Assembly: GCA_027624915.1 (NCBI GenBank)
Contig: JAQBTR010000002.1
Coordinates: 30,802-94,801 of the forward strand
From: a bacterium
GTDB taxonomy: Bacteria > Patescibacteriota > Minisyncoccia > Ryanbacterales > GWA2-47-10b
DNA: 64,000 nucleotides
Direction: 5' to 3'
The translations under genes were made by a program, and so were the position numbers. Under the pieces are notes generated by a model that saw only the letters and a program-made list of their open reading frames with translations, did not search any database and was not told the origin of the DNA. Below, one piece after another: positions 11,391 through 57,454 of the stretch (positions within the stretch are counted from its first letter, which is position 1; each line of letters opens with the position of its first letter).

Positions 11391-11465
11391 GCCAGTATAG
11401 CTCAGTGGTAGAGCAATGCTTTTGTAAAGCATAGGTCGTGGGTTCGAATCCCTCTGCTGGCTCCA
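11391..11465 (+). tRNA. tRNA-Thr (anticodon TGT), CCA encoded
   Basis: cloverleaf folded by hand: acceptor gccagta/tgctggc, anticodon loop tttgtaa, T-loop ttcgaat. Confidence 0.85.
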
Positions 11466-11466
11466 A

Positions 11467-11565
11467 GTTTGAAAAACAATTTCAAGTGAGAGGGATGAGA
11501 ACAGAGTGCTGTTAGCACTCTGCGGGGTTTGTGATAGGCAAACCGAATCCCTCTGCTGGCTCCAA
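11467..11565 (+). repeat. tRNA-downstream structured element ending in a 22-nt copy of the tRNA-Thr 3' end (cgaatccctctgctggctccaa)
   Basis: hairpin agagtgc-tgtta-gcactct, then a hairpin with loop tgatagg, then an exact duplicate of the tRNA 3' end; homologous to the element at 32838-32918. Confidence 0.55.
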
Positions 11566-14448: not shown

Positions 14449-15707
14449 GCAAAGAGACTGAAATAAAAAGACGAGTATATTTAGATCATGCGGCAGCCAC
14501 TCCAATGGACTTGCGAGTAAAGGAAGCTATGGATTCATACATGACTGATGAATATGGAAATGCTGGCGGCTTGTATCGCGAGGGGCGTCGAGCAAAAGAC
14601 GGCATTGATCATGCGCGCAAAAGTCTTGCGCGTATTTTGAGTTGTCGTCCTGATGAAGTTGTTTTTACCTCTGGTGGTACCGAAGGAGATGTTCTGGCGA
14701 TTATCGGTACGGCGCGTGCCAATAAAGATCGTGGAAGTCATATAGTAACAACAACAATTGAACACCAAGCCGTCCTTGAATCATGTGAAGCTCTAGAAAA
14801 AGAAGGTTTTGAGGTGACCTATGTTGATGTTGAGCCAAATGGAGTTGTTGACCCTAAAAAGATTGAAAGCGCTTTACGTGATGATACTATTTTAGTTTCT
14901 GTTATGTATGCAAATAATGAAATAGGTACGATTCAACCCATTCGTAATATTGCAAAGATTTTGAAAGACAGAAAAATTATTTTTCATACTGATGCTTGTC
15001 AGGCATCCGAATACTTAGATTTAGACGTACAAAAACTTGGCGTAGATCTTCTTGTTTTGAACGGTTCCAAGGTGTATGGCCCAAAGGGTGTCGGTGCAGT
15101 ATTTGTTCGTAATGGGACTCGCGTGAGACCCATTCTTTTTGGTGGAGCACAAGAAGGTAAGCGGCGAGCGGGAACCGAGAATGTTCCGGGTATCGTGGGT
15201 CTTGGGCGCGCTTTAGAAATTGCCGATGAGATGAAAGTTAGAGAGGGTGCACGCCTCAGTGAACTTCGCGATTATCTGATAAGTAGAATAACGAAAGAGA
15301 TAAAGCGAACCATTTTGAATGGAGACGCAAAAGAGAGGCTTCCTAATAATGTTAATATTTCTATTCTTGATATAGAGGGGGAGGCTACTCTTTTATATCT
15401 TGATAATTACGGGATTGCTTGTTCTACGGGCTCTGCATGCACCTCGGAGAGTCTTGACCCGTCTCACGTGATTTTGGCGCTTGGTAAGCCATATGAGCAT
15501 GCACACGCATCTATTCGATTTACACTTGGGAGAGGTACTAAGAAAGAAGATTTGGATTATTTGATGGAATATCTACCGGGAGTTGTTACAACATTAAGAA
15601 AAATTTCACCAATAACAGTAGAAGAAGATGCAAAGGGTATGTCGCATCCTGAAGCATTTGCTGGAGAAAATATGAGAGTAAAAGCTAATTCTAAAAACTA
15701 TAAATAA
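14445..15707 (+). CDS. cysteine desulfurase (NifS/IscS family, PLP-dependent)
   Basis: class V aminotransferase motifs (FTSGGTE, HTDACQA, SKVYGPKG); start set at ATG 14445 overlapping the arsR stop (ATGA). Confidence 0.85.
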   Translation: MSKETEIKRRVYLDHAAATPMDLRVKEAMDSYMTDEYGNAGGLYREGRRAKDGIDHARKSLARILSCRPDEVVFTSGGTEGDVLAIIGTARANKDRGSHIVTTTIEHQAVLESCEALEKEGFEVTYVDVEPNGVVDPKKIESALRDDTILVSVMYANNEIGTIQPIRNIAKILKDRKIIFHTDACQASEYLDLDVQKLGVDLLVLNGSKVYGPKGVGAVFVRNGTRVRPILFGGAQEGKRRAGTENVPGIVGLGRALEIADEMKVREGARLSELRDYLISRITKEIKRTILNGDAKERLPNNVNISILDIEGEATLLYLDNYGIACSTGSACTSESLDPSHVILALGKPYEHAHASIRFTLGRGTKKEDLDYLMEYLPGVVTTLRKISPITVEEDAKGMSHPEAFAGENMRVKANSKNYK

Positions 15708-17751: not shown

Positions 17752-18972
17752 ATGGAAGACCTCAATAAATCACAACTTGTACTACTTTTTATTCTTGTAA
17801 GCGTTGTTGTCTCATTTACAACGGCTATTGTGACCGCAGCACTTTATGAACAAGCACCAGTTACCTCAATTGGACAGACAATACAGAGGGTTGTAGAAAG
17901 GGTGGTACCCATTGAGAAAGATAACACCAAAATAGTGTCCGAGGAGGATAAGATAGTACGGGTTGTAGAGGAGGTATCTCCGGCTGTAGTCAGTATTATT
18001 GCCTCAAAGGATCTTCCAGTCCTTGAGCAATGTATGGTGTCTCCATTTGGAGATGGTGACGTATTTCGTCAGTTTTTCCCCGAGCTTTTGGTTCCAAGAC
18101 TCTGTGAACGTGGAACTGAGCACAGACAAGTTTCATCTGGCTCTGGTTTTATTGTTGGGGAGGATGGACTTATAGTTACCAACCGTCACGTAGTAAAAGA
18201 TACAGAAGCTACCTACACAGCAATCCTAAATGACGGTCGCCAGTTTGAGGCGACAATTCTCGCACGAGACCCACTTGAGGATTTGGCACTGCTATCTATA
18301 GATGGAGACGGATTTTCACACTTAACTCTTGGAAATTCTAATGATGTTCGCGCTGGTCAAAGTGTCATTGCCATTGGTAATGCACTTGGAGAATTTAATA
18401 ATACAGTTTCCGTTGGAGTTGTTTCTGGTTTGCGCAGGACCATTGTTGCAGGGGGTGAAGAATTCCGTTCACTCATTCAGACAGATGCCGCTATTAATCC
18501 AGGAAATTCAGGTGGGCCACTTCTTAATCTTTCAGGACAGGTTATAGGTGTTAATACGGCCGTTGCATCAAATGCAGAAAATATTGGTTTTGCTCTACCA
18601 TCACGGATAGTCCAGAAAGATATATACGACTTAGAAAAACATGGTCGCATCGTCTACCCATACTTGGGTGTTAGGTACCGTATTCTGACGAATGAAGTTA
18701 AGGATGAACTTGGCCTACCTGTAAACTATGGAGCACTTATTGTAAGTGGAGAGAGTGGAGAGCAAGCCATATCACCTGGTTCACCGGCAGCCACATCTGG
18801 GATGAAGATTGGTGATATACTATTAGAGATAGCAAGTGAGCGCATCACACGCGATAATCCTCTTGCTGAGATTCTGCAAAAGAAGTCAATAGGTGAGAAT
18901 ATATCAATTAAGCTCCTCCGTGGAGATGAGGAAATAACAATACAACTAGCATTAGGAGAAAGAAAATTTTAA
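17752..18972 (+). CDS. htrA: HtrA/DegP-family serine protease with PDZ domain
   Basis: trypsin-like catalytic triad context (TNRHVV, DLALL, GNSGGPL) plus a C-terminal PDZ-like region; N-terminal TM anchor. Confidence 0.85.
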   Translation: MEDLNKSQLVLLFILVSVVVSFTTAIVTAALYEQAPVTSIGQTIQRVVERVVPIEKDNTKIVSEEDKIVRVVEEVSPAVVSIIASKDLPVLEQCMVSPFGDGDVFRQFFPELLVPRLCERGTEHRQVSSGSGFIVGEDGLIVTNRHVVKDTEATYTAILNDGRQFEATILARDPLEDLALLSIDGDGFSHLTLGNSNDVRAGQSVIAIGNALGEFNNTVSVGVVSGLRRTIVAGGEEFRSLIQTDAAINPGNSGGPLLNLSGQVIGVNTAVASNAENIGFALPSRIVQKDIYDLEKHGRIVYPYLGVRYRILTNEVKDELGLPVNYGALIVSGESGEQAISPGSPAATSGMKIGDILLEIASERITRDNPLAEILQKKSIGENISIKLLRGDEEITIQLALGERKF

Positions 18973-21823: not shown

Positions 21824-21844
21824 GCGAGTGGCGGGGTGGAAATC
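21824..21844 (+). repeat. partial duplicate of the 5' part of tRNA-Tyr
   Basis: gcgagtggcggggtggaaatc matches the tRNA-Tyr 5' region gcgagtggcggagtggacaatc (20/22). Confidence 0.5.
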
Positions 21845-22336: not shown

Positions 22337-22897
22337 TTATTGTTTCTGGTTATTCTCAGCTTCTTCGGCTCTTAGCTTGCGCTCAAGGTCAAGCAGAAGT
22401 GATAGCTCATATCGATCACGCTGATGATCTGGATCTGGAGCTTCCATCTCTCCCCGTAGAAATTCTAGGACGAGTTGCGTACAGATTTCAGAAATTTTTT
22501 CTGGCTCTATTGTGATGCCGGCTTTCTCTAGACTAGCACGATGCTCGACAAGAAATATTTGTAATTCTTCTTCATGACGCTTGAGCACTTCATCTCCATC
22601 TACAATGAAGTTTTCAATGGCGGCATGGTCTTCCGGACTCAGTGGAATCTCATCATGAGTTTCTGCAGGGTCGTCATGACGGAAAATTGATGCAAACGAT
22701 AGAAACTTATTACCTCCAGGTCCCTCTTCGTGTTGTTCAGCTCTTTGCTCTTCAAACGCCCCTCTTGGAGAGAGGCGATTGATACGCCTGGATAGACCAA
22801 GAAGTAACTCTTCAGTCTGAGTCATCTCTCTTTCCTCCATTAGGTCTTCAGGTTGTTCCGGCCCTTCCCTCATGTTTGAATTCATTGTAACTCTCAA
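22337..22897 (-). CDS. hypothetical acidic protein
   Basis: 186-aa Glu/Asp-rich ORF divergent from two HTH genes; no family recognised. Confidence 0.5.
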   Translation of the reverse strand: MRVTMNSNMREGPEQPEDLMEEREMTQTEELLLGLSRRINRLSPRGAFEEQRAEQHEEGPGGNKFLSFASIFRHDDPAETHDEIPLSPEDHAAIENFIVDGDEVLKRHEEELQIFLVEHRASLEKAGITIEPEKISEICTQLVLEFLRGEMEAPDPDHQRDRYELSLLLDLERKLRAEEAENNQKQ

Positions 22898-22936
22898 TTT
22901 TTATATTGCAATAGGAGTCGACTAATCTGTCAAAGT

Positions 22937-23227
22937 GTGGTACGGATGTGTGTGGAGGTGTACACCATGAATGGTGGAGCCATAATCGATATGTCACCTA
23001 ACAGGCCGATTGGTATCGATGCCGCATATTGTACAGGTCAGCTACAAGATGTTATTGCCGATCCTAAGGCCTTTTCAGAAGAACTCGGTCTATCTCTATC
23101 AGCTGTCTATAACTACTTAAATGGACGTATTCCAACATTGGATGTAATGTTTCGTATTGCGCAATTTTGTGATCGACCGATTGAGTCTTTTTTGGTCCGC
23201 CAACCCAGAGATGGAGGTACAGGTTAG
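22937..23227 (+). CDS. XRE-family helix-turn-helix protein (paralog 1)
   Basis: HTH_XRE-like region LGLSLSAVYNYLNGRIPTLDVMFRIAQFC. Confidence 0.55.
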   Translation: MVRMCVEVYTMNGGAIIDMSPNRPIGIDAAYCTGQLQDVIADPKAFSEELGLSLSAVYNYLNGRIPTLDVMFRIAQFCDRPIESFLVRQPRDGGTG

Positions 23228-23229
23228 TA

Positions 23230-23610
23230 ATGAATGCTACGGGATCTGCTTTCATTCGCAACGAGACGGTTTCATTCGCTATCGATACTAGATATCTGGC
23301 CGATAGAATGCGGGAAGTTGTCAGAGACGAACCAAAAGCGTTCGCCTATGGTACAGGTATTTCACTTTCAGCGGTTTACAACTACATGAATGGGCGAGTC
23401 CCAACAACTGATGTTCTTTTTCGAATCGCAAAATACACTCGTCGTCCAATGGAATGGTTCCTTGATCCAGAATTTGAAGAAGAACCCACTAAGACCAAAG
23501 TAAGTAATGGGCACGAGAGCAATATGGAACGCTTTCCGTTTTCTTCGTCAGATCGGCCAACGCTGGTACAGTCTGACTCACAAGGCAGACAATATTGGGA
23601 GACTCAGTGA
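23230..23610 (+). CDS. XRE-family helix-turn-helix protein (paralog 2, with C-terminal extension)
   Basis: GISLSAVYNYMNGRVPTTDVLFRIAKYT, clearly paralogous to the upstream ORF. Confidence 0.55.
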   Translation: MNATGSAFIRNETVSFAIDTRYLADRMREVVRDEPKAFAYGTGISLSAVYNYMNGRVPTTDVLFRIAKYTRRPMEWFLDPEFEEEPTKTKVSNGHESNMERFPFSSSDRPTLVQSDSQGRQYWETQ

Positions 23611-23675
23611 CCTCACATATGAGGTCTTTTTTTATACTCAAAATAAAGTATAATGTCGGGTACTATAAGAAATAT

Positions 23676-23790
23676 GGGGGTATAAGCTCAATGGGTTTAA
23701 GCTCCGGGGGAGCTTTAACGGGAAATGTAGTGAGTTTACGAACGTAAAGCATTTCCCCAGGTCGCGTGATAGGCGCGACCTGCTGGTCAT
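23676..23790 (+). ncRNA. candidate structured RNA element 5' of tRNA-Trp (copy 1 of a two-member family)
   Basis: three consecutive hairpins; homologous to 32545-32660 with a compensatory change in hairpin 1, a shared core acgggaaat..atttcc, and the hairpin ggtcgcg-tgatRgg-cgcgac. Confidence 0.4.
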
Positions 23791-23806
23791 AGTACTATGG
23801 AAATAT

Positions 23807-23880
23807 GGGAGATTAGTTAAGTGGTATAACATCGGTCTCCAAAACCGAGGTCGGGGGTTCAATTCCCTCATCTCCCGCCA
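23807..23880 (+). tRNA. tRNA-Trp (anticodon CCA), CCA encoded
   Basis: acceptor gggagat/atctccc, anticodon loop ctccaaa, T-loop ttcaatt. Confidence 0.85.
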
Positions 23881-23884
23881 AAAC

Positions 23885-24244
23885 ATGGATACAGAAAAAC
23901 AAAAATATACATGGCAAGAGTTTGATGAGGATGTGAACTTACTTGCAGAAAAAATAAAAGCCACCAATAAAAAATTTGATGGCATTTATGGTATCCCAAG
24001 AGGAGGTCTACCAATAGCTGTAGCATTATCTCATCGACTTGATTTACCCATGCTTATGGGTGGTGCCAACGAAAAAACACTCGTTGTTGATGACATCGCG
24101 GATTCTGGCTCGACACTAAAGCCATATAGAGATAGAAAATCAACGATTGTTACAGTTTTTTATCACCCCTCAAGTACTACAGAGCCAAATATATGGCTTA
24201 GAAATAAGGAACAGAAGTGGATTGTGTTTCCATGGGAGTCGTAA
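23885..24244 (+). CDS. gpt: xanthine-guanine phosphoribosyltransferase-like PRTase (short)
   Basis: PRPP-binding LVVDDIADSGSTL; overall resemblance to Gpt (RGGLPIA..., C-terminal WIVFPWE). Confidence 0.65.
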   Translation: MDTEKQKYTWQEFDEDVNLLAEKIKATNKKFDGIYGIPRGGLPIAVALSHRLDLPMLMGGANEKTLVVDDIADSGSTLKPYRDRKSTIVTVFYHPSSTTEPNIWLRNKEQKWIVFPWES

Positions 24245-24258
24245 TAGAATAAGCTCCG

Positions 24259-25671
24259 ATGATACGTGATGGACTTACATTCAATGATGTACTCTTGGTT
24301 CCAAAAAAGTCTGAGGTTTTTTCAAGAAAGGATATTGATACCAAGGCGTACTTAACACGACTCGTATCTATACATGTACCAATTGTCAGTGCAAACATGG
24401 ATTCTGTTACAGAATTTCAAATGGCACGAGCAATGGCAGAAAACGGTGGAATTGGAATAATCCATCGTTTTTTGTCTATTGAAGATCAGGTAGAGGAGGT
24501 TGCAAAAGTAAAGCGCGCAGAAAATACTGTCATCGAGGATCCGTACACCGTTCACCCTGATTACACTCTTTTTGATGCAAGGCGTTTTATGGAGAGCAAG
24601 TCCATATCTGGTGCCATTGTTGTAGATGACAAAAAGAAACTTGTTGGTATTATTACATCGCGAGATTTGCTTTTTGAACAAGACGACAGGAAACTTGTTA
24701 AGAATGTAATGACTCAAAAGGTGATTACAGGTGAGCCACGAATCTCACTCGATAAGGCAATTGATCTTTTGCATACTCATAGAATTGAAAAACTGCCACT
24801 CGTAACTAAAGCCGGAACATTACGAGGGCTTATTACACTTAAGGATGTTTTAAAGCGGATAAAGTATCCTCATTCTTCTAAGGATAAAAAGGGGAGACTC
24901 ATGGTGGGAGCTGCTGTTGGTGTTAAGGATGATACTTTAAAACGTACTGATGCTCTGTTACGTGCAGGGGTAGATATTATTGTTGTAGATATAGCACATG
25001 GACACAATACGCGAGCGATTACTACAACCAAGCAGATAAAAAGAAAGTTTGGTAAAAAATGTCAACTTATCGCAGGAAATGTTGCAACGCCACGTGCTGC
25101 TGAAGACTTAATAAAAGCAGGCGCTGATGGAATTAAGGTTGGCATTGGGCCAGGGGCGGCGTGTACCACGCGTATAGTAACCGGTGTTGGAGTCCCACAA
25201 CTGACAGCAATACAAGACGTTATTTCAGTGACGAAGAAGTTAAAGATTCCAATCATAGCTGATGGTGGTATTGGTAATTCGGGAGATTTTGCCAAGGCAA
25301 TAGCAGCTGGTGCACAAACAGCAATGATAGGTAGTTTGCTCGCAGGATGTGAAGAATCTCCAGGTGAATACGTTATGGAAAATGGTTCCGCATACAAACA
25401 CTACCGAGGCATGGCGAGCTATGAGGCGAGCTCTGAAAAGGTTCGTATTGATGGCGGTGGCAAAGATGGTTTTTGGCGAGCACCAGAGGGTAGGTCCGGC
25501 AAAGTTCCATACCGTGGTAAAACCTCAGGTGTTTTAAATGATCTCATGGCAGGATTGCGTAGCAGCATGAGCTATCTTGGTGCACATAATTTAAGTGAGT
25601 TTTCAAAAAACGCAGAGTTCATAAAAATGTCTCCATCTGGCATGAAAGAGTCAGATACGCGTCTTGACTAG
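24259..25671 (+). CDS. guaB: IMP dehydrogenase with CBS pair
   Basis: IMPDH catalytic loop GIGPGAACTTR, CBS domains, 470 aa. Confidence 0.85.
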   Translation: MIRDGLTFNDVLLVPKKSEVFSRKDIDTKAYLTRLVSIHVPIVSANMDSVTEFQMARAMAENGGIGIIHRFLSIEDQVEEVAKVKRAENTVIEDPYTVHPDYTLFDARRFMESKSISGAIVVDDKKKLVGIITSRDLLFEQDDRKLVKNVMTQKVITGEPRISLDKAIDLLHTHRIEKLPLVTKAGTLRGLITLKDVLKRIKYPHSSKDKKGRLMVGAAVGVKDDTLKRTDALLRAGVDIIVVDIAHGHNTRAITTTKQIKRKFGKKCQLIAGNVATPRAAEDLIKAGADGIKVGIGPGAACTTRIVTGVGVPQLTAIQDVISVTKKLKIPIIADGGIGNSGDFAKAIAAGAQTAMIGSLLAGCEESPGEYVMENGSAYKHYRGMASYEASSEKVRIDGGGKDGFWRAPEGRSGKVPYRGKTSGVLNDLMAGLRSSMSYLGAHNLSEFSKNAEFIKMSPSGMKESDTRLD

Positions 25672-25700
25672 CCACAAAAAAACAAAATTCCTGTTCCATA

Positions 25701-25744
25701 CGATCTAAGCCAGCTAGCAATGTTTCGGGACGCTCAATCAGAAG
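25701..25744. repeat. bipartite intergenic repeat copy B (cgatctaagccagc-N16-cgctcaatcagaag)
   Basis: identical boxes and spacing to 11316-11359. Confidence 0.6.
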
Positions 25745-25853
25745 TATGAACACAAATTTTGTTTTTTTGTAGTTAGCAAACGCTTGACTAGATACATATT
25801 TTAAGTTAATTTACTTGCGGACAAGGAGGTACTTATGGCACATAATTCCTGGA

Positions 25854-26147
25854 ATGAACATCGTATATCGTATTCGGGACCTACGCTCACGTCTTAATTT
25901 TACTCAAAAAGAGATAACTCCTTTACTTGGAATTATGCGTTGTACTTTTAATCGATGGGAGAATGGTCACTCGGATCCTCTACCCTTCAACTGTATTACA
26001 ATTTACAATCTTGCCAGCCCACCCGCTGAAGATGCTACACATGGTAATGGTAGAATGCCAGCTTATCTCGATGCAGGGCCACACTTCCCTGTAGATGGAG
26101 AAGTTTTCTATCCTCGAGAAAGTGAACTCGCCACAAATACAGGATAG
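25854..26147 (+). CDS. XRE-family HTH transcriptional regulator
   Basis: IRDLRSRLNFTQKEITPLLGIMRCTFNRWENGHSDP matches the HTH_XRE pattern; start set at internal ATG, the track ORF begins at a TTG. Confidence 0.5.
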   Translation: MNIVYRIRDLRSRLNFTQKEITPLLGIMRCTFNRWENGHSDPLPFNCITIYNLASPPAEDATHGNGRMPAYLDAGPHFPVDGEVFYPRESELATNTG

Positions 26148-26281
26148 CAAGATGATTCCTGCTTGCGCGTTAAGTGGTCATCAGCGAGCTCTCAATATGC
26201 AAATTTTGATTGCAGCCATGGTGAAAGCATTAGCCCAAAATTCAAGCGAAGTACAATATTCAAAGAGACGAAATAAGTAGT

Positions 26282-26308
26282 ACCTGCCCACACGGGCAGG
26301 TTTTTTGT
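26282..26308 (+). terminator. rho-independent terminator
   Basis: cctgcccacacgggcagg + tttttt. Confidence 0.6.
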
Positions 26309-26321
26309 TACAATCAAAATC

Positions 26322-29030
26322 ATGAGAAAGCAGTCAGTATGGTTTGATGCAGTTCCAGACTCTCGTACATATGAAGCGTTACAAGGAGATGCTACATCCG
26401 ATATCGTTATTATTGGTGGCGGAATCGTTGGTGTTGTGGCCGCTTGGCATTGTCGCAAGCTTGGACTAACCGTTTCTCTTGTCGAGAAGAATCATATAGG
26501 TACAGGGGATACGGGGCTTACTACTGGTTTTTTAACTCGTGTACCAGATACATCTTTGGTCGAATTAAAGGACACACACGGAGAGGATTTTGTTCATAAA
26601 TTATATAAAGCTTCGGGGGATGCACAAAAAGAACTTTTTGATTTAATTAGCTCTGAGTCTATTGATTGCGACTTTATAAAAGCTAAGAGTTATTACGGAG
26701 CTTATGAGGCTGGGAGCAAAGAGCTTGCCGAAGAATTTATTCCACTTGATGATGCGGATCCATATGCCGAATTGATACAAAGTCAGGCTCCATTTGCAGA
26801 AGCGATTGAATTTGAGGGAGAGGGACGATTTCACTCAAGAAAATTTTTGCTTGGACTTCTAAAAAAGATGAGAGGAGAGGGTTTTTCTGTATTTGAAGAA
26901 TCAGAGGTCGAATCTATACATATCGAGGAGGGTGTACTTATTAAGACAAGTGATGGTTCAATAAAGGCAAAAAAGCTGATTAATACAACTGGATTGCCCC
27001 CAGAATATTTTAGTGAACTTCAACCACTTTTTAGACAAAAAATTACATACGTAACAGCTGCCAAGTTTTTAAAACAGCCATTGCCGTTTAACCTCTATTG
27101 GGATACTGGAGACCCATATTTTTATTTTAGATTAATCGACGAGACAACAATGATTGTTGGTGGGTCTGATCATGATGTCGGTAAAGCAAAAGGAAATGAG
27201 ATTGATTTGATTAAGAACTTTATTAAAAAGACTTTTGGCGATCAACATGAAATAACGCATGAATGGTCTGGAAGTCTTTTTGAAACCAAGGACGGTCTCC
27301 CGTATATTTTTGAGCACCCACACCATAAGGGAAGGGCTTATATAGCATGTGGTTTTGGTGGCAATGGACTTGTGTTTGGGTTTTTAGCAGGTAAGTTGCT
27401 TTCATTACTAGTATCAGACAGTGAAGCTCCAAACAAAGATTTATTTTTACCATTAAGAACTGGTGAAAAAATTGGTGAACCAAAAAAAATCTCAAGAGAA
27501 ACAGGTCAAAAATCTTTTGTGAAGGTTGCCAAGGCGAGTGATGTTGTGGAGGGTAAGCCATTTGGTGTTGAAGCTGGCGGTATGAAGCTTGCACTCTTTA
27601 GAATTGGCGAGAATGTCTATGCATTTAATAACTCATGCTCACATGCAGGAGGCTCTCTTTGCGATGGAGAGATAGAAGGTAAGATTGTAACCTGTCCTTT
27701 GCATGCAGCACAATTTGATGTAACCACAGGAAGTGTTGAGGGACCACCAGCTGTTAGACCACAGACCATGTATCAAGCTCGTATACAGGGTGAGGACATA
27801 GAAGTAGAAGTTCCTGCAGGTGAGGAGCCTAAACCGGGTTTAAGCAAAATAAAACCAAGGCGTATGACACATTGGGCATCACTTTTCAAATTTGCTCTTG
27901 GTGCATTTGGATTTTTTGTTTTTGAATTTGCGCTTCAATACTTTTGGCTAACAAAGGGAGAACTAGGAGGCTCTCTTGTGAGATCATTTGCGCTTTCAGG
28001 TGCTACGTTAATAGGTGCGGCACTCCTTTCGAGCGTTGTCTTTAGAATTTTTCCAAAGACTGCGCGGCTCTGGCGACAGAGACGCTACTTAGGAGTTTCT
28101 GGTTTTGTGTTTGCACTATTTCATGCATTATCCGTGTACTATTACTTTTTTAACTGGGAAATCCAATACGTTTATTACAGCTTAAATCCCATCGAGAATC
28201 CCATAGTATTTGGTTCTATTGCGCTCTCAATATTTATGGTACTTGCACTTACTTCTACCGATTGGGCTGTACAGAAATTGACTCCAAGGGTATGGAAGTT
28301 TATACATCGTTTTGTGTACGTAGGTTTTTTGGCAAGTGTCTTTCATTTCATTACAATTAATCCAGAGCTTTTGCAGAACCCACCGGGGTATCTGCTGCTC
28401 CTAATTACGATCCTCGCGATTATTGGTCATCTTTATTTATTTATAAAAACAATTATGAAAAAAGGATTTAACACAATTGGTGCATTAGTAGGCACTGTCA
28501 TTATTGTTGGCGCTGTCATTGTTGGATACTTGGTATACCGAGATACTTTTGCTCCAGTACCAGCGAAAGAGATGGGTGAAGCAAGTGAGGGGATGGATTT
28601 AGAGGACTCTGTAAAAGAAATGAAGGAGTTTATGGAAAAGAATCCGCCGGATGCTGATGTTATGACAAAGCCAGTTCTTGAAGACCAAGGATTTGAAGGG
28701 ACTATGTCACGTTCAGGAACATTTCAAAATGTAAATTATATGACAAGTGGCGGGGCAACGCTTGAGAAGAGAGGTGATGGGCATTTTGTTGTATTTGGAG
28801 ATGATTTTGAAACGCCAAACGGTCCAGATTTGCAAATATACTTAACAAAAAATCTTACAACAACAAATCGAGGAGATATTAAGGACGGGATTATTTTGGG
28901 AAAATTAAAAAGTACAAAAGGAAAGCAAGTATACAAAATTCCATCAGGCACAAATATAGAAGAATTTAATTCTGTCTCAATTCATTGCCGAGCCTTCAAT
29001 GTTCCGTGGAGCTACGCGCCACTCAGGTAG
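26322..29030 (+). CDS. multi-domain redox protein: FAD-dependent oxidoreductase + Rieske [2Fe-2S] + His-containing polytopic TM domain (ferric-reductase-like) + C-terminal DM13-like domain
   Basis: N-terminal GGGIVGV Rossmann/DAO-like region; Rieske CSH...CPLH boxes; 6-7 TM helices with conserved His (FHALS, IHRF...FHFI, GHLY); C-terminal ~110 aa resembling the DM13 electron-transfer domain. Confidence 0.7.
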   Translation: MRKQSVWFDAVPDSRTYEALQGDATSDIVIIGGGIVGVVAAWHCRKLGLTVSLVEKNHIGTGDTGLTTGFLTRVPDTSLVELKDTHGEDFVHKLYKASGDAQKELFDLISSESIDCDFIKAKSYYGAYEAGSKELAEEFIPLDDADPYAELIQSQAPFAEAIEFEGEGRFHSRKFLLGLLKKMRGEGFSVFEESEVESIHIEEGVLIKTSDGSIKAKKLINTTGLPPEYFSELQPLFRQKITYVTAAKFLKQPLPFNLYWDTGDPYFYFRLIDETTMIVGGSDHDVGKAKGNEIDLIKNFIKKTFGDQHEITHEWSGSLFETKDGLPYIFEHPHHKGRAYIACGFGGNGLVFGFLAGKLLSLLVSDSEAPNKDLFLPLRTGEKIGEPKKISRETGQKSFVKVAKASDVVEGKPFGVEAGGMKLALFRIGENVYAFNNSCSHAGGSLCDGEIEGKIVTCPLHAAQFDVTTGSVEGPPAVRPQTMYQARIQGEDIEVEVPAGEEPKPGLSKIKPRRMTHWASLFKFALGAFGFFVFEFALQYFWLTKGELGGSLVRSFALSGATLIGAALLSSVVFRIFPKTARLWRQRRYLGVSGFVFALFHALSVYYYFFNWEIQYVYYSLNPIENPIVFGSIALSIFMVLALTSTDWAVQKLTPRVWKFIHRFVYVGFLASVFHFITINPELLQNPPGYLLLLITILAIIGHLYLFIKTIMKKGFNTIGALVGTVIIVGAVIVGYLVYRDTFAPVPAKEMGEASEGMDLEDSVKEMKEFMEKNPPDADVMTKPVLEDQGFEGTMSRSGTFQNVNYMTSGGATLEKRGDGHFVVFGDDFETPNGPDLQIYLTKNLTTTNRGDIKDGIILGKLKSTKGKQVYKIPSGTNIEEFNSVSIHCRAFNVPWSYAPLR

Positions 29031-29169
29031 ATCCCATGAAAAACACATGTGGATAAAAATGCAGTATTTTGTCTGAGGTGGGTTTTCTCCCTTAAAATAA
29101 GGGAGTTTTCTCTTGTTAAGAAACAAATAAAAATGTGTGTCAATCTATTCCATATCTCCTTGAAGGGAT

Positions 29170-31806
29170 ATGATGAGCTTAGAGTTATTAAACAAACAGA
29201 GGAGGGCCAGAATGGCTCGCTCAAATAGGAAGACACCAAAACGAAACCCACGCATACCGTGGTCTAGTTTTTCCAAGAAATTTGTAGATCGACTTTGCCG
29301 AATGGCAACCCAGGATGAAATCCTGGATGCTGTCGCGAAAGAATGTGGCACACGTCCCACATGGAACACGACAAGCGCATATTTTTCTCGTTCTGGATTA
29401 AAGCCTAAAGTTTTTGAAGTACTTCATGTTGCTGATCGTCTTGACGGCAAGCAACAAGAGAATTTTAGAAAACTTTGGACAAGTGATGCTTCCATTTCTG
29501 ATGTGGAAGAAGTATTTCCTGGCATAAAGAGAGATGATCTCCGTCGTATTGCTCAAAGGCTTAAAGTAAAGAGGGGTTCTCGTAAGGAGCAGGACACAGC
29601 GTTCGATGAAGTTATTTCACCTTTGTCGCCAGAAGAGGCACTCGCTGAGATGACGTTGCCAGAGCGTGAATGGGACGACCCACTTCAACTAGAGATGATG
29701 CCAGGCGCATGGGCTGATCGTGCCGTTCGAATCGGACTTATGTCCGGTATCGCATATGGCAATGATGGCATGCGTGGTGGTCTCATTAATCTTGCGATGG
29801 AACTTCTTCGTGATGAGGGTATCCGCCTCATCATCAATAATGCACACGTTGTCGATGGTAAGAGTGTTGTCGGTCAAGTGGCCGAACGCACCGTTGAACT
29901 TCGAGAGGAGTCTCGCGGGCGCCGTGCCACAAGGGCTGGTAGAGAAAGATATCCCGCACTTACTCAGGCTTCGCTACGCGATAAGGCTGCAGAAGATGTT
30001 GTGCAGGCAGTAGCCAGAGACCTTTCTTCACTCATACCCCAAATTCTCCGTCCTTTACCGATGCGCGAGAAAGGACGAATTCCATTTGTAAAGATGTATA
30101 CGCTCACGACTCCAGATACCCTATCTCTCTATGATGGAAAGTATGGAGAATCTATTGCGGAAGAATTGCAACATATTCGTGACGACATCATCTTGTATGG
30201 TGCTGGTGGGGACTGGATCTATATCAGAGATTTTGATATCAAGATTGGTATTTTGAATCCCAGCAGATCTCGACTTCCTGGTAAGTACCAGAGTACAGCC
30301 GGTGAAAAAGAGATTGATGAGAAAGAACGCCAGACATCTCAAGACTTCCCAGATCTTTGGATTGTGAATCCGTTTGCAGCAGCTGTATTTCAGCCGGCAG
30401 GCATTCGCGCACGTCCATACATCATGGGACCAGCACTTCGTCGTTTGGAAGAAGTCCACACGGCCGAGAATCAGGCTGGTATCATGATTCTGGAGTATAG
30501 ACCAAATAGACAGAAGATTGTTCGTAACTATTCGTTTAGAGATTTGATTAGAGCTGAGCTTAAGACGATTGTTACTCCGCGTGGCGCAACCAAGACGCAA
30601 AAACGTATTGTTGCGACAATCGGTGAGCACGGCGCTCTTCCTATTGGTACTCTCGAAGACCGTATGCCAGGAGTGAGTCGTGCAACGATTGAACGAGAGA
30701 TTTCTGGTCTTGTAAGCTCTACAGGCAAGCTTTCTACTCGTAAGACATGGCCTGGATTGGTTTTCGATTCGAGGTCAAAGAGATACTACTTCGATGACGA
30801 GTGGATCCAGCGAAAGTTAAGATATCGTTGGCCTAAGGACTTGGTTAGTGACCGTATGCTCTTCTTCGGATGTTTGCATGCTGGGTACACAACGACAGAC
30901 TACGAGCACTTCGTAAAGGAGTACCCTCGTATCATGCTCGAGTATGGTGTTGATCATCTCTTCGGACTTGGCGACATGATCGCTGGTCTAAAGCATGGTC
31001 TTGCATGTTCCGGCGAAGTATTCGGTGGGATGAATTATACCGAGCAAGAGGTTTTTGCCGCAGAACTCGTTGCAACGGTTTTGTTCAAAACCTTCAGGGC
31101 TCGTTTGGAGGTCAAGAGAGGCAAGAAGTCCTTGTCTGACCTTTCTTCCGAAGAGCTGTCGAACCTACTTTCTGATAGCCTCGTTCACTTCCACTATATT
31201 CATGGTAATCATGATTTGTGGCAGGAATATGACGGGCAAATTCCTCTTCAGCAGTTCAACGATGTGTTGGTGAGACTCTTGCATGATGAGACTCTCAAGA
31301 TGTTGATAGAGGAGCGAGCTCCTGCTATCGATCTTTTTGAGATTTTGGCTTCAAAAACTTCTTTCTATTCTGATTTTGCTGGAGTTGCCGAATTGCCGTC
31401 TGGCATCAGGGTGTCAATGCAACATCCTCAGATGGGTCGCGCTCAAACGACAACCTTGCGTGCCCAGCATGCAATGGGAACTCGCGGCGCACAAATCTCA
31501 GCTCTTGCTAACTTCCATGCGTCTGCCACTGTCGCCCAGTGGACTTCTGATCTCGGTCAGTGTGTAGCCATGCAGGCGGGGACGCAGGTCATCTATACGC
31601 GCTTCGAGCGTCGTAAGATGAAAAAAGAAGTTGATTTCGGCCCGCTCTATCTCCATGTCCAGTCCAAGGGTGGACGAATTTATATAGATGAACGAGCGGC
31701 GTTTAATGAAAGTATTTTAAAAGTAGCTCTTAATAAGAAACACGATTCTGAAGGCCTTAAGCGAAAGCTTGGTCTACTCCGACATCCGGATCTTATTGTT
31801 AGGTGA
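29170..31806 (+). CDS. large hypothetical protein (878 aa) with C-terminal calcineurin-like metallophosphoesterase motifs, on a higher-GC island
   Basis: GCLHAG / GDMIAG / IHGNHDLW resemble phosphoesterase motifs I-III (the motif I Asp is replaced by Cys); basic N-terminus; GC about 48-55% against 40% background. Confidence 0.55.
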   Translation: MMSLELLNKQRRARMARSNRKTPKRNPRIPWSSFSKKFVDRLCRMATQDEILDAVAKECGTRPTWNTTSAYFSRSGLKPKVFEVLHVADRLDGKQQENFRKLWTSDASISDVEEVFPGIKRDDLRRIAQRLKVKRGSRKEQDTAFDEVISPLSPEEALAEMTLPEREWDDPLQLEMMPGAWADRAVRIGLMSGIAYGNDGMRGGLINLAMELLRDEGIRLIINNAHVVDGKSVVGQVAERTVELREESRGRRATRAGRERYPALTQASLRDKAAEDVVQAVARDLSSLIPQILRPLPMREKGRIPFVKMYTLTTPDTLSLYDGKYGESIAEELQHIRDDIILYGAGGDWIYIRDFDIKIGILNPSRSRLPGKYQSTAGEKEIDEKERQTSQDFPDLWIVNPFAAAVFQPAGIRARPYIMGPALRRLEEVHTAENQAGIMILEYRPNRQKIVRNYSFRDLIRAELKTIVTPRGATKTQKRIVATIGEHGALPIGTLEDRMPGVSRATIEREISGLVSSTGKLSTRKTWPGLVFDSRSKRYYFDDEWIQRKLRYRWPKDLVSDRMLFFGCLHAGYTTTDYEHFVKEYPRIMLEYGVDHLFGLGDMIAGLKHGLACSGEVFGGMNYTEQEVFAAELVATVLFKTFRARLEVKRGKKSLSDLSSEELSNLLSDSLVHFHYIHGNHDLWQEYDGQIPLQQFNDVLVRLLHDETLKMLIEERAPAIDLFEILASKTSFYSDFAGVAELPSGIRVSMQHPQMGRAQTTTLRAQHAMGTRGAQISALANFHASATVAQWTSDLGQCVAMQAGTQVIYTRFERRKMKKEVDFGPLYLHVQSKGGRIYIDERAAFNESILKVALNKKHDSEGLKRKLGLLRHPDLIVR

Positions 31807-31836
31807 TGCTAAAGCATCACCTTTTTTGTTAGTGTT
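31802..31836 (+). terminator. rho-independent terminator
   Basis: ggtgatgctaaagcatcacc + tttttt. Confidence 0.65.
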
Positions 31837-31866
31837 GCTATAAGATACAAAAAAATACACCAGCTT

Positions 31867-32427
31867 TCACTGGTGTTCCCGTTTTATCTGGGCACGCATG
31901 CGTGCCATGATTCTTTGACTTGTTTTTTGGCCCTCTGCGTCTGTTTTTTGTGGGTAACGGATAGCTATATAGTTGACCAACAAAGAATCAAGCAGCTCAT
32001 CATCTGATGAATGTTTAAGGGGATTCAAGATGATGGTGTGTCTAAGAAGGTCGTACGTGGCCTCGCCTTTATAATCTCTCATGCAAATCACTCTAAAGTT
32101 GTTTCGAATAAGAAATTTCAATTGTGGGACCGCATTCTCTAGTGAGAGTGTATCCCACCAAAACTCACCATCCTGTGCCATAATGCGCTGAACTCCTTTT
32201 TTGATTGGCTTATGGTTACATCGCCATCCAGGATGTATGACATGAAGATACTCATGAATGAATGTATCCCACATTTCTTCAGAATTGCTGTGTTTCCTCG
32301 GGTCAATGATTACTGTTTTAGTATCTTCATCACAGAGACCCCATGCATGACCACCATTTTTTTCAGGGTACAGTTTGTCGTATTCTACAGACCATCCTTT
32401 GTTCATCAGCGCTTGAAGGCGCTTCAT
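31867..32427 (-). CDS. SprT-like (HExxH) zinc metalloprotease domain protein
   Basis: GLCDEDTKTVIID...FIHEYLHVIH matches the SprT-like/WLM pattern; start set at ATG 32427 with a GGGAGG RBS, the track ORF is longer. Confidence 0.55.
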   Translation of the reverse strand: MKRLQALMNKGWSVEYDKLYPEKNGGHAWGLCDEDTKTVIIDPRKHSNSEEMWDTFIHEYLHVIHPGWRCNHKPIKKGVQRIMAQDGEFWWDTLSLENAVPQLKFLIRNNFRVICMRDYKGEATYDLLRHTIILNPLKHSSDDELLDSLLVNYIAIRYPQKTDAEGQKTSQRIMARMRAQIKREHQ

Positions 32428-32544
32428 AACAGGCCTCCCTTGGCTTTTACAGTCTATACATATGCAAACATATTTTCTTTGCTTATCCAAGGGGTAGAAA
32501 TGCATAACTATTTGTGTTATAGTTGGCGCTACAATAAAAAATAG

Positions 32545-32660
32545 GGAGGAGTGGCTGAGTGGGTCACAGGTCTGGGAGAGCTGTGACGGGAAATATAGCG
32601 AGCTTGTCGAGCGTATAGTATTTCCTCGGGTCGCGTGATGGGCGCGACGACTAGCGCACA
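32545..32660 (+). ncRNA. candidate structured RNA element 5' of tRNA-Ser (copy 2 of the family); begins with an 18-nt duplicate of the tRNA-Ser 5' end
   Basis: ggaggagtggctgagtgg is identical to the tRNA-Ser start; then hairpin gtcacag...ctgtgac, core acgggaaatatag...tatttcc, hairpin gggtcgcg-tgatggg-cgcgac. Confidence 0.4.
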
Positions 32661-32701
32661 AAGTACGTAATGCTTTTCCGGAACAATTTAGATATACATA
32701 T

Positions 32702-32788
32702 GGAGGAGTGGCTGAGTGGTTGAAGGCGGCAGTCTTGAAAACTGTTAAGGGTGAAAGCCCTTCGTGAGTTCGAATCTCACCTCCTCCG
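32702..32788 (+). tRNA. tRNA-Ser (anticodon TGA), type II, CCA not encoded
   Basis: acceptor ggaggag/ctcctcc, anticodon loop cttgaaa, variable-arm hairpin aagggtgaaagcccttc. Confidence 0.85.
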
Positions 32789-32795
32789 CATCAAA

Positions 32796-32830
32796 ACAAA
32801 TGGGATACCTTGCGTATCCTTTTTTTGTTT
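32796..32830 (+). terminator. rho-independent terminator after tRNA-Ser
   Basis: tgggatac-cttgc-gtatcc + ttttttt. Confidence 0.55.
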
Positions 32831-32837
32831 TGAGATA

Positions 32838-32918
32838 GGGAAGGGATTCGAACCGGAATGCTAAACGCATTCCGCGGGTTGTCTGATAAGAGGCAACCGA
32901 ATCCCACCTTCTCCGCCA
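32838..32918 (+). repeat. tRNA-downstream structured element (copy 2 of the family seen at 11467-11565) ending in a tRNA 3'-end-like ...ccgaatcccaccttctccgcca
   Basis: hairpin ggaatgc-taaac-gcattcc, then gcgggttgtc-tgataag-aggcaacc, then gaatccc + acceptor-like 3' strand + CCA; parallel architecture to 11503-11565. Confidence 0.5.
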
Positions 32919-33062
32919 AAAAACGAAATCGGATTTTAGAGCCGAAATTGGGTCGACGCTTCGCGCCGACCCAGATTTGCGTTCAGAAACCCTTTTCGAA
33001 AAATTGCGGTGTGTATTGAACGAAGTTCGAATGTATTTTGAGTTGAAGTTTTAGAATAATTT

Positions 33063-33335
33063 TTGACACGAATTAACTCTGGGCGTAGGCTATCCAGTAG
33101 ACGAAGCGGAGACCATATGTCTAGAGACGGAGCATACTATGTTCAATTTGAGCTTGGGCGATTGAGTGGCGACATGAATACTCACACGCTTTTGATCCCG
33201 CTGCAGGCGGCTACCAACGAAGATGCGGTTAGAGAAGGTCAAAGAATGTTCATGGAACATAGAGATTTAGGACAGAGTAATCCATCCTTTAGGGTTTTTC
33301 ACCTCATACATGAAGAAAGAGCAGAAGAGAAATGA
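33063..33335 (+). CDS. hypothetical protein
   Basis: ORF only; start uncertain. Confidence 0.35.
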   Translation: MTRINSGRRLSSRRSGDHMSRDGAYYVQFELGRLSGDMNTHTLLIPLQAATNEDAVREGQRMFMEHRDLGQSNPSFRVFHLIHEERAEEK

Positions 33336-33553
33336 CGACGGAAATCCTAGAAGAGGCCTTGTGTCGTGTTACGTGCCAAAAAGGAACTACACGAACGTTT
33401 TGGATAGGATTTCCTTTAGATATGTTTCCAAAACCATCAGCAATAGAGATGGGTAGGCGTCTACTTCCCGCTGAAGATCTAGGATGCATTTCTTGTATTT
33501 TGCACGAATCGTGTGGAGAGCCGATAGACGTTAAATTAACACTCATGGGTTAA
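33332..33553 (+). CDS. hypothetical small Cys-containing protein
   Basis: ORF overlapping the upstream stop (ATGA); terminator hairpin follows. Confidence 0.35.
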   Translation: MTTEILEEALCRVTCQKGTTRTFWIGFPLDMFPKPSAIEMGRRLLPAEDLGCISCILHESCGEPIDVKLTLMG

Positions 33554-57160: not shown

Positions 57161-57217
57161 GGATAGTCGGCAACGGTGTTTTCTATCCGCCCATTGCATA
57201 GACGTAGTGAACTTTGT

Positions 57218-57280
57218 CCGCCTGTAGCTCAGTCGGTGGAGGTGAGTCTTCTGGGAGAAGACGAACCACTTTTAAGGGGA
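57218..57280 (+). pseudogene. degenerate tRNA-Lys-like copy (first 22+ nt identical to tRNA-Lys, hairpin inserted between D-arm and anticodon loop)
   Basis: ccgcctgtagctcagtcggtggag + hairpin gtcttct-ggg-agaagac + ccacttttaagggga. Confidence 0.5.
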
Positions 57281-57321
57281 TTTGAAAATTTAATATAAAC
57301 TCGGATTATCGTTAGCAAAGT

Positions 57322-57394
57322 CCGCCTGTAGCTCAGTCGGTAGAGCAGCTCCCTTTTAAGGAGATGGTCGTAGGTTCGATTCCTACCAGGCGGA
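57322..57394 (+). tRNA. tRNA-Lys (anticodon TTT), CCA not encoded
   Basis: acceptor ccgcctg/caggcgg, D-arm gctcagtcggtagagc, anticodon loop cttttaa, T-loop ttcgatt. Confidence 0.8.
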
Positions 57395-57404
57395 CTTTGA
57401 ATGG

Positions 57405-57436
57405 GATAATCCGAGTTCGATTCCTACCAGGCGGAC
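57405..57436 (+). repeat. inverted repeat (gataatccgag, partner ctcggattatc at 57300-57310) followed by a 22-nt duplicate of the tRNA-Lys 3' end
   Basis: gttcgattcctaccaggcggac is identical to the tRNA-Lys T-arm/acceptor 3' region; 11-bp IR brackets the intact tRNA. Confidence 0.55.
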
Positions 57437-57454
57437 AAAATTCAGTACACTAAA

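Follow-up and report, generated by a model that had tools for sequence, protein, structure and literature searches.

The 64-kb stretch of DNA analysed here (the window; coordinates are positions within it) lies on a ~90 kb metagenomic contig, across which the called genes were checked, and carries six tRNA genes. Two of these, tRNA-Trp(CCA) and tRNA-Ser(TGA), are each preceded by a structured element, termed here copy A and copy B, respectively. An earlier inspection of the letters, made without database searches (the sequence-only reading), had recognised A and B as homologous and treated them as a self-contained family of two, for which it offered three identities: an undescribed non-coding RNA (ncRNA), a tRNA-leader structure, or the end of a mobile element that targets tRNA genes. 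Whilst the two elements are homologous and lie where that reading placed them, the family proves to be larger, as two modules on the 3' side of tRNA genes share its core and a third copy of its first hairpin lies at tRNA-Lys. In their anatomy, A and B represent the 5' side of a family of structured modules, specific to this genome, that are built onto tRNA gene ends and physically tied to them; the defining feature, missed by the first reading, is a sense/antisense/sense arrangement of the tRNA end around a hairpin core.

A and B share 81% mean column identity in a MAFFT alignment that includes their flanks. A covariance model built from this alignment (R1), run on the window with filters off, scored 144.1 bits for B and 139.8 bits for A, the rest of the window giving at most 13 bits, and the 20-nt string of hairpin 3 occurs exactly twice in the window against an expectation of zero. 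The RNAalifold consensus fold contains 31 pairs in four helices, with three hairpins in each copy. The first hairpin had been noted as one that differs between the copies and nevertheless pairs, and three compensatory pairs between A and B bear this out. Over the whole fold, all 12 substitutions in paired columns preserve pairing, five pairs being changed on both sides and two on one side (GC/GU and AU/GU), and no pair is broken; when partners are slid by 1-3 columns, pairing falls from 100% to 40-53%. The covariation that the sequence-only reading had wished to see is thus present pair by pair, with statistics that are bounded by the size of the alignment, as 21 of 500 shuffles reach the observed value and two sequences limit the floor to ~1/32. 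Pairing in A and B is kept by selection.

Folding of the + strand gave z-scores of -4.4 for A and -3.5 for B (minimum free energies, MFE, of -47.8 and -46.8 kcal/mol, respectively), and across the modules folding of the tRNA-sense (+) strand is favoured over that of the - strand by 3-12 kcal/mol. Copy A together with tRNA-Trp recurs at 100% identity across 274 nt in an independent Logan assembly of run SRR2027830, which excludes an assembly artefact for this arrangement. ARAGORN reported only the six true tRNAs in the window, and on A and B neither the tRNA nor the tmRNA model (RF00005 and RF00023) matched even at E<=10; nor did any other Rfam family match them, either at the gathering threshold or at E<=10. 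The earlier judgement that these elements are not tRNA, tmRNA, signal recognition particle (SRP) RNA or RNase P RNA therefore stands, and they are absent from Rfam.

Both copies are composite, each consisting of a distal copy of a tRNA end or leader, hairpin 1, and a two-hairpin core that recurs in the 3' modules. In B, the 18 nt already known to be identical to the 5' end of tRNA-Ser extend to 22 nt at 95% identity when four leader bases are included, and the closing helix P1, which the MFE and centroid structures both contain, joins 32551-32560 to 32650-32659 by nine Watson-Crick pairs, with two bulges. In A, the repeated segment is the tRNA-Trp leader, GTACTAT..GAAATATGGG, with a distal (23660-23678) and a proximal (23792-23809) copy, and a tRNA-like GGGTATAAGCTC within the element repeats the 5' arm of its own hairpin 1 and is no fragment of tRNA-Trp. 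The promoter/leader ahead of A is itself duplicated, ahead of B lie a -10-like TACAAT and a consensus promoter-like site, and no terminator was found between A or B and the downstream tRNA. Features of the window are collected in the table.

Table. Modules, their parts and the associated tRNA genes, in order of position.
Feature	Positions	Strand	Basis
3'-type module after tRNA-Thr(TGT)	11489..11565	+	third-best R1 match (E 0.05), fold, repeats
tRNA-Tyr 5' end, 17-nt copy (94%), 45 nt upstream of gene	21824..21840	+	repeats; core absent
tRNA-Trp promoter/leader and first GGG, distal copy (GTACTATAAGAAATATGGG)	23660..23678	+	sequence, alignment, direct repeat D3
Copy A, 5'-type module upstream of tRNA-Trp	23676..23795	+	R1 match, fold, independent assembly
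A hairpin 1, 25 nt, apex TCCGGGGGA	23695..23719	+	inverted repeat I2; three compensatory pairs against B
A long hairpin (stem 2), GGGAAATG...CATTTCCC, inner GTT/AAC stem	23720..23757	+	consensus fold
A hairpin 3, CAGGTCGCG-TGATAGG-CGCGACCTG	23758..23782	+	loop scan, repeat analysis
tRNA-Trp(CCA), preceded by A	23807..23880	+	ARAGORN; Rfam 70 bits
tRNA-Ser 5' end, distal sense copy, positions -4 to +18 (F5)	32541..32562	+	18 nt at 100%; 22 nt at 95%
Copy B, 5'-type module upstream of tRNA-Ser	32544..32666	+	R1 match; MFE structure a four-way junction
B hairpin 1, 25 nt, apex TCTGGGAGA	32563..32587	+	consensus fold, repeats
B long hairpin (stem 2)	32588..32626	+	consensus fold
B hairpin 3, GTCGCG-TGATGGG-CGCGAC	32630..32648	+	pattern and loop scans
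Antisense copy of tRNA-Ser positions 7-16 (ACTAGCGCAC)	32650..32659	+	MFE, centroid, sequence reading
tRNA-Ser(TGA)	32702..32789	+	ARAGORN, Rfam; terminator 32802-32826
3'-type module after tRNA-Ser terminator	32843..32918	+	sequence reading, loop scan, fold
tRNA-Lys 5'-end copy (22-26 nt), then third hairpin 1	57216..57266	+	repeats
tRNA-Lys 3' end, exact 22-nt copy, 19 nt downstream of gene	57415..57436	+	repeats; core absent

The two 3'-type modules follow tRNA-Thr(TGT) and tRNA-Ser. The first consists of an antisense segment, AGAGGGATGAGAAC, which is the reverse complement of the tRNA-Thr T-loop/T-stem with two changes (an antisense arm of 14 nt at 86%, I2), a hairpin CAGAGTGC-TGTTA-GCACTCTG, the triplet CGG, a hairpin GGTTTG-TGATAGG-CAAACC, and an exact 22-nt sense copy of the tRNA 3' end (11544-11565), the strong terminator coming only thereafter. 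The second repeats this order, with antisense T-loop/T-stem GGGATTCGAAC, hairpin CGGAATGC-TAAAC-GCATTCCG, CGG, hairpin GGTTGTC-TGATAAGA-GGCAACC and sense tRNA 3' end CGAATCCCACCTTCTCCGCCA. Each folds into a three-way junction in which the antisense segment pairs with the sense segment to close the structure, with the acceptor strand and CCA left unpaired (z -3.9 for Thr and -5.7 for Ser, the latter with an MFE of -34.5 kcal/mol).

What A, B and both 3' modules have in common is a core formed by a long hairpin, NGG, and a hairpin with a TGATRRG loop. With stems of at least 5 bp, this loop occurs in the window in A, B, the two 3' modules and one wobble-rich coding site; with stems of at least 6 bp there are four such hairpins in the 64 kb, all at tRNA flanks and each preceded by NGG, and ~1 Mb of unrelated loci contained none. 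Across the four, the first pair is always G-C, the other five of the six pairs are changed on both sides, and 24 of 24 cells are paired; in the hairpin that comes before it, the Thr and Ser 3' modules show two more compensatory pairs between them. B and both 3' modules run in the same order from the gene outwards, i.e. tRNA end, promoter or terminator, antisense copy, hairpin core and distal sense copy, the 5' modules being the mirror image of the 3' modules.

Two smaller points concern the tRNA sequences at these 3' modules. The segment CGAATCCCACCTTCTCCGCCA (32898-32918) has four differences from the 3' end of tRNA-Ser(TGA), and its antisense partner matches it, with GGGATT, not GAGATT; the source of the variant may be either another tRNA-Ser isoacceptor or arms that have co-evolved. 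The gene for tRNA-Thr(TGT) itself (11391-11465) has a U-U mismatch in T-stem pair 50-64 and still scores 72 bits with the tRNA model.

A short-word BLAST search of each tRNA against the window showed that a duplicated end is the rule, since five of the six tRNA genes have one if the leader duplication at tRNA-Trp is counted: the 3' end of tRNA-Thr(TGT) (22 nt, 100%), the 5' ends of tRNA-Tyr (17 nt, 94%) and tRNA-Ser (18 nt, 100%), and both ends of tRNA-Lys (22 nt, 100% in each case). Bases outside the tRNA lie within several duplicates (-4 to -1 at Ser, -2 to -1 at Lys, one base past CCA at Thr), and the copying must therefore have taken place at the DNA level, not from mature tRNA. Upstream of tRNA-Lys, the 5'-end copy leads into the third hairpin 1 (57242-57266, 25 nt, apex TCTGGGAGA), so that each of the three copies of this hairpin in the window stands directly after a tRNA 5' fragment; next after it is a decayed copy of the anticodon loop (57269-57281, 92% identity, D2), and the unit is without an antisense copy. 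We read the tRNA-Lys 3' copy and the tRNA-Tyr 5' copy as relics, because no core accompanies them.

The tRNA-Lys locus as a whole (57204-57448) has a nested appearance, with an intact gene inside a decayed older tRNA-Lys, of which the 5' end, the hairpin-1 insertion, anticodon-loop remnants on both sides and the 3' end remain. Leader-trailer stems can be drawn for both, of 31 nt for the intact gene (57298-57328/57387-57417) and 21 nt for the older one (57204-57224/57428-57448).

The window is cellular, encoding ClpB, IMPDH, ribosomal proteins, RpoA and HrcA-GrpE-DnaK-DnaJ, and its host is a Parcubacteria-like bacterium; the closest IMPDH sequences are at most 68% identical, and those with names are labelled Parcubacteria, Lloydbacteria or Patescibacteria. 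A phage-encoded small RNA of the tRNA region was considered and rejected, given the cellular contig and the finding of only tRNA-sized matches in 50,697 phage records. The inserts delimited by the duplications measure 41-157 nt and contain no open reading frame (ORF). Apart from the hairpins, their inverted repeats are copies of tRNA segments only, and the duplications, of 17-26 nt, differ in content. ORFs of ~186 aa upstream of A and of B are not paralogues and have no recombinase domain. Separately, the interval from tRNA-Thr(GGT) to tRNA-Ser (22337-33553) holds several unannotated genes, two XRE-type helix-turn-helix (HTH) proteins among them, and might be an island; it also encodes a 187-aa protein on the opposite strand with an HEYLH metallopeptidase motif and an 878-aa protein without a Pfam match that has metallophosphoesterase-like motifs (GDxxAG...HGNHD).

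Searches beyond the window provided two informative relatives. Of 80 loci obtained in a metagenome scan with ClpB, most came from unrelated bacteria or phyla and served mainly as a negative control. Among the 80 were L022 and L031, whose ClpB is the closest (58-59% identity) and which alone were observed to retain the synteny of tRNA-Tyr directly behind ClpB. The surroundings of each tRNA, to a distance of 450 nt, were searched by script for sense and antisense tRNA fragments: behind 9 of the 16 tRNAs in L022 and L031 there is a terminator and then an exact antisense copy, 11-21 nt long, of the T-loop, T-stem or acceptor strand, against 0 of 12 in the other loci. In about half of the nine, an exact sense copy of the 3' end (12-19 nt) also survives on the far side of a core of ~85-100 nt, and at L031 tRNA-Leu(CAA) and tRNA-Cys a diverged sense copy is visible by eye. 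Two different units stand in tandem at L031 tRNA-Tyr and at L022 tRNA-Leu(CAA).

The cores in these relatives resemble each other more within a genome than between orthologous loci. At L031, the first tRNA-Tyr unit and that of tRNA-Trp share a hairpin with an AAGCTT loop (GCGGTGCCCAGAC and GTCGAGGGAGA), and the L022 units at these tRNAs differ. Another core type of ~54 nt, GAGCCGGGGTCGAGAGTACTTAG...CTTAGTAACTCGTGACCG, is 87-94% identical between L022 tRNA-Trp (15185-15237) and L031 Leu-CAA, Leu-TAA and Cys (sites at 18819-18872, 4212-4264 and 4561-4583); it is absent from Rfam, in which the relatives' units gave no match, and adjoins a hypervariable helix and a conserved internal loop, GGCGGAG/CGAGCC, with arms specific to each tRNA. 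At tRNA-Trp, for which orthologues can be compared, the window genome carries its module on the 5' side and lacks one on the 3' side, and L022 and L031 have 3' modules of two types. This turnover of cores argues for gain and loss or movement, not for one vertically inherited RNA gene per locus, and the invariant junction motifs argue for some sequence-specific constraint.

Three features of the relatives, with coordinates in L031, are recorded here in their own right. At 12832-12877 and 14913-14950, acceptor strand, terminator and antisense acceptor form one perfect palindrome with arms of up to 27 nt. In the antisense arm, a conserved hairpin AGCAA...CYGC...TTGCG, the inner pairs of which covary, sits exactly at the acceptor/T-stem junction. 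Directly after tRNA-Leu(CAG), ARAGORN calls a 'tRNA-???' with a two-base anticodon (3655-3742), the 3' part of which is a 95% copy of the tRNA-Leu 3' region, and which thus represents a partial tRNA duplicate.

Homologues of the A/B sequence itself were sought widely. The covariance-model search envisaged by the sequence-only reading returned A and B as the only strong matches in the window, with the tRNA-Thr module third, and nothing in the relatives' loci; R1 likewise found nothing on the remainder of the source contig or on L022 and L031. Loci around the closest IMPDH relatives had no tRNAs and no genuine R1 match, a 10.7-bit match just upstream of IMPDH in a Lloydbacteria-like locus (L011/L012, 9874-10002) being judged spurious and terminator-like by eye. 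The exact hairpin-3 pattern had no match in viral contigs and nine in genome contigs, all attributed to chance in GC-rich genomes, and the strict two-gap core pattern had none in metagenome contigs. In viral scans, all matches to the core motifs of the relatives and to the stem-2 motif were judged to be chance (L102 was inspected, and the others were negative with R1).

We tentatively favour, at slightly less than even confidence, a reading in which the modules are duplicative repeats at tRNA ends, similar to the RtT repeats of Escherichia coli, probably selfish or near-neutral and co-transcribed with the tRNA. Judged from their sequences, A and B appear to be a new 5'-sided variant, with a new core, of these poorly understood repeats. 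Among the three identities first proposed, the mobile-element end and the tRNA-leader structure come closest, and that of an isolated, undescribed ncRNA family is not sustained. Mechanistically, the modules would originate and propagate where tRNA genes end, through duplicative rearrangement of the DNA or through insertion, and would behave as selfish or near-neutral repeats; their sense/antisense/sense layout resembles a miniature tandem-inversion duplication anchored on the D- or T-loop and on promoter or terminator palindromes. Transcription of A and B would start at the distal promoter-like box and run on into the tRNA gene, giving a long structured leader in which P1 would form first, co-transcriptionally, and the antisense arm would be kept from invading the tRNA; RNase P would then free the module as a by-product RNA of ~120-150 nt. 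Hairpin pairing could be maintained either as a need of propagation or as harmless folding of the precursor.

Several observations weigh against this reading. Mobility is deduced from the distribution of the modules alone, because integrases, transposases, reverse transcriptases and RNA-guided nucleases are all missing from the called genes of the ~90 kb contig, the repeat analysis of the modules gave no terminal inverted repeats of fixed sequence, and neither an empty-site polymorphism nor a free form was seen. We similarly infer the transcription and RNase P processing of A and B from sequence, and a consensus promoter scan placed a + strand site upstream of B only. Copy A conforms less well than B: the expectation that each copy starts with the 5' end or leader of its tRNA holds fully for B, but A duplicates only the tRNA-Trp promoter/leader and GGG, with no true tRNA 5' fragment, and its closing helix P1 is weak, at 7 bp (GTACTAT with ATAGTAC). 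Neither the viral, genome and metagenome scans nor the relatives' loci gave a homologue of the A/B core beyond this genome. Finally, conservation in the relatives, with invariant junction motifs, a hypervariable helix and 94% core identity where the tRNA-Tyr genes are ~80% identical by eye, is as compatible with a functional RNA or a protein-binding site as with a selfish element.

The last of these points leads to the alternative that A and B are functional tRNA-linked ncRNAs, which we regard as possible, if distinctly less probable. They could act in cis as a leader or trailer for tRNA folding or maturation, the antisense arm competing between the tRNA and its decoy copy, or in trans as a small RNA that borrows tRNA-end mimicry for its processing, as proposed for RtT. 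Fully kept pairing with five double changes, conserved loops and junctions (TGATRRG, NGG, YCYGGGRGR), the energetically favoured + strand and the duplicated promoter of A are all as expected of such RNAs, as are the invariant junction motifs beside a hypervariable helix and the 94% identity of cores between genomes in the relatives. There is also a precedent, in that RtT RNA is a processed product of the tyrT operon transcript that has been linked to stress responses, its role in the stress or stringent response being suggested and unproven (10.1101/2024.07.17.603846). Set against this, orthologous tRNA loci in the relatives have unrelated cores or none, tRNA-Trp with a 5' module here and 3' modules in L022 and L031 being the clearest case, and the duplications at tRNA-Tyr and tRNA-Lys are relics that have no core. 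The terminator between tRNA and 3' module in the relatives argues against control in cis, the A/B core is without a homologue outside the genome in the scans made, and no target or partner can be named.

It is rather unlikely, though worth stating, that the modules constitute a new class of element programmed by tRNA ends, either self-inserting or riboregulatory. By analogy with CTX phage attP(+) or integron attC, though with a stem matched to its target, a self-inserting form may be a folded single strand of DNA or RNA in which P1 recreates the duplex of the tRNA gene end and directs insertion beside the cognate tRNA; a riboregulator may carry a tRNA-specific antisense arm, masked by the decoy copy and released on a signal. 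Were this so, E. coli RtT would be the first described member of a widespread class with 5' and 3' forms, greatly expanded in small-genome uncultured bacteria.

Doubtful to a slightly greater degree is the proposal that the modules are attachment (att) site scars of integrase insertions, the islands having since been deleted to ~100-160 nt, or that they are miniature non-autonomous derivatives mobilised in trans, with 3'-end copies left by the usual orientation and 5'-end copies plus a new promoter by the reversed one. Integrative elements in reversed orientation do replace the 5' end and promoter of a tRNA gene, and att duplications at tRNAs resemble the modules in that they repeat the part of a tRNA between a loop and the end of the gene, retain an intact tRNA and can build up arrays in successive rounds. 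The direct repeats found here (Ser 5', 22 nt at 95%; Thr 3', 22 nt; Lys 5', 22-26 nt; Lys 3', 22 nt) run from the D- or T-loop, or at Lys from the anticodon loop, to the gene end, as does a classic identity block. Moreover, the true terminator at tRNA-Thr follows the distal copy, different units form tandem arrays at one tRNA in the relatives, and the Lys locus looks like an old tRNA-Lys split around an intact new one. Unlike att duplications, however, the inserts are of 40-160 nt, carry no recombinase gene, and have an antisense copy of the target, which is not a feature of known att sites, together with a conserved hairpin core. No insert contains an integrase gene or pseudogene, circles of the insert periods, 41-157 nt, would be too small for synapsis, and the presence of the same core at the 5' and 3' ends of different tRNAs would need an unusually relaxed site specificity.

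That A and B are decayed tandem tRNA duplicates, their hairpins being remnants of the anticodon, variable and T arms under no selection and without mobility, is very unlikely. The order of parts in B does mimic a type II tRNA, in that an acceptor/D fragment is followed by a hairpin, a long hairpin and a hairpin whose loop has 7 nt, and upstream of tRNA-Lys the copy retains a remnant of the anticodon loop (92% identity); but A and B are 81% alike and yet unrelated to their own tRNAs beyond the terminal fragment, 12 of 12 paired-column substitutions preserve pairing, and neither the tRNA model nor ARAGORN gives a signal. Hairpin 3 cannot be a T arm, because in the 3' modules it lies 5' of a genuine T-loop remnant. 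Scarcely credible, finally, are guide-type RNAs, in which a scaffold with a 17-22 nt tRNA guide (5' as in IscB/Cas9-type systems, 3' as in TnpB/Cas12-type systems) would steer a nuclease or recombinase to tRNA genes: the layout of a scaffold with a ~20-nt terminal segment identical to a tRNA gene fits, and uncultured bacteria of this group carry compact RNA-guided systems, but genes of the TnpB, IscB, Cas or IS110 type are absent from ~90 kb of contig, P1 already pairs part of the 'guide', and the scaffold matches no omega-RNA, crRNA or bridge RNA family in Rfam.

Further candidates were dropped by eye, namely hammerhead and other small ribozymes, SRP RNA, 6S RNA, Y RNA/YrlA, T-box, retron msr/msd, group II intron domains and integron attC R-boxes. 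The same applies to template and variable repeats of diversity-generating retroelements, as differences between the copies are not restricted to adenines, and to a retroelement primer-binding site, as there is no complement of CCA and the duplicates hold flanking bases from outside the tRNA, which indicates copying at the DNA level.

Several known systems are partial analogues of the modules. Like REPIN/REP and miniature inverted-repeat transposable element (MITE) repeats, they are short, multi-copy, intergenic, hairpin-forming and genome-specific, with compensatory change in their stems; unlike these, they have arms copied from the neighbouring tRNA and a strict association with tRNA ends, no RAYT or transposase gene was seen, and the fixed terminal inverted repeats and constant short target-site duplication of MITEs are lacking. 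Tandem inversion duplications that arise via snap-back or template switching at quasi-palindromes have been described in Salmonella, and they too comprise three copies, the middle one inverted, with junctions at hairpins (here the terminator and T-arm). They extend over kilobases, in contrast to the ~20 nt seen here, and leave a conserved multi-copy core between loci and genomes unexplained. In the CTX phage attP(+) site and in integron attC, inverted target-like copies ~50-100 nt apart fold into a duplex that mimics the target, and the order after integration (target, rest of element, inverted copy, spacer, target) is that of the modules. The analogy is geometric only, since the 'rest of element' is here a promoter or terminator, and a recombinase, a single-stranded replicon and an excised form are not known for the modules.

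The closest counterpart is RtT, and the supposition that the elements are without any described analogue is not upheld, as RtT has the same architecture even though its model does not match them. Behind the E. coli tyrT operon lie 178-bp repeats, each with the last 19 nt of tRNA-Tyr. In the MG1655 genome, the 19-mer AATCCTTCCCCCACCACCA recurs every 178 nt after tyrV and once between tyrT and tyrV, and each unit matches RtT (RF00391) at 133-137 bits, against a gathering threshold of 45 bits. In the Rfam consensus, GGGGAAGGAU pairs with AUCCUUCCCC, i.e. antisense T-stem/T-loop with the sense 3'-end copy, enclosing the inner hairpins and leaving CCACCACCA unpaired. RtT and the window modules are thus alike in being structured units that adjoin a tRNA gene in the same orientation and end in a distal direct copy of a tRNA terminal segment. 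With the 3' modules in particular, RtT shares an antisense T-stem/T-loop that closes the structure, two inner hairpins, a single-stranded acceptor-CCA tail and the possibility of tandem arrangement. The 3' position and the copy of the tRNA 3' end that characterise RtT are found at 11489-11565 (22 nt, 100%) and 32843-32918, and its antisense/sense closing helix is found in B and the Thr and Ser 3' modules and, in a weak 7-bp form, in A. RtT and the tRNA-Thr module (11489-11502) even have GGAU-GAGAA in place of GGAU-UCGAA in the antisense T-loop, a two-base change common to very distant bacteria, which may be convergent or coincidental.

The differences are equally clear. The core sequences are unrelated, and the RtT model gave no match in the window at the gathering threshold and none at E<=10 at A, B or the tRNA-Thr module. 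Most tRNAs of this genome carry modules, compared with one operon for RtT, and A and B lie on the 5' side, where B carries the 5'-terminal 18-22 nt and D-arm of its tRNA; to our knowledge, a 5'-side mirror-image form of an RtT-like module has not been described before. One practical consequence is for annotation, in which repeats of tRNA fragments, with which the tRNA flanks of such genomes abound, can be mistaken for pseudogenes, att sites or novel ncRNAs. If the favoured reading of RtT-like duplicative repeats is right, the 40-year-old tyrT repeats would be one case of a general acquisition of modules by tRNA gene ends, and this lineage, with many loci, several core types and clear turnover, offers a comparative data set on the origin of such modules and the role of RtT-like RNA.

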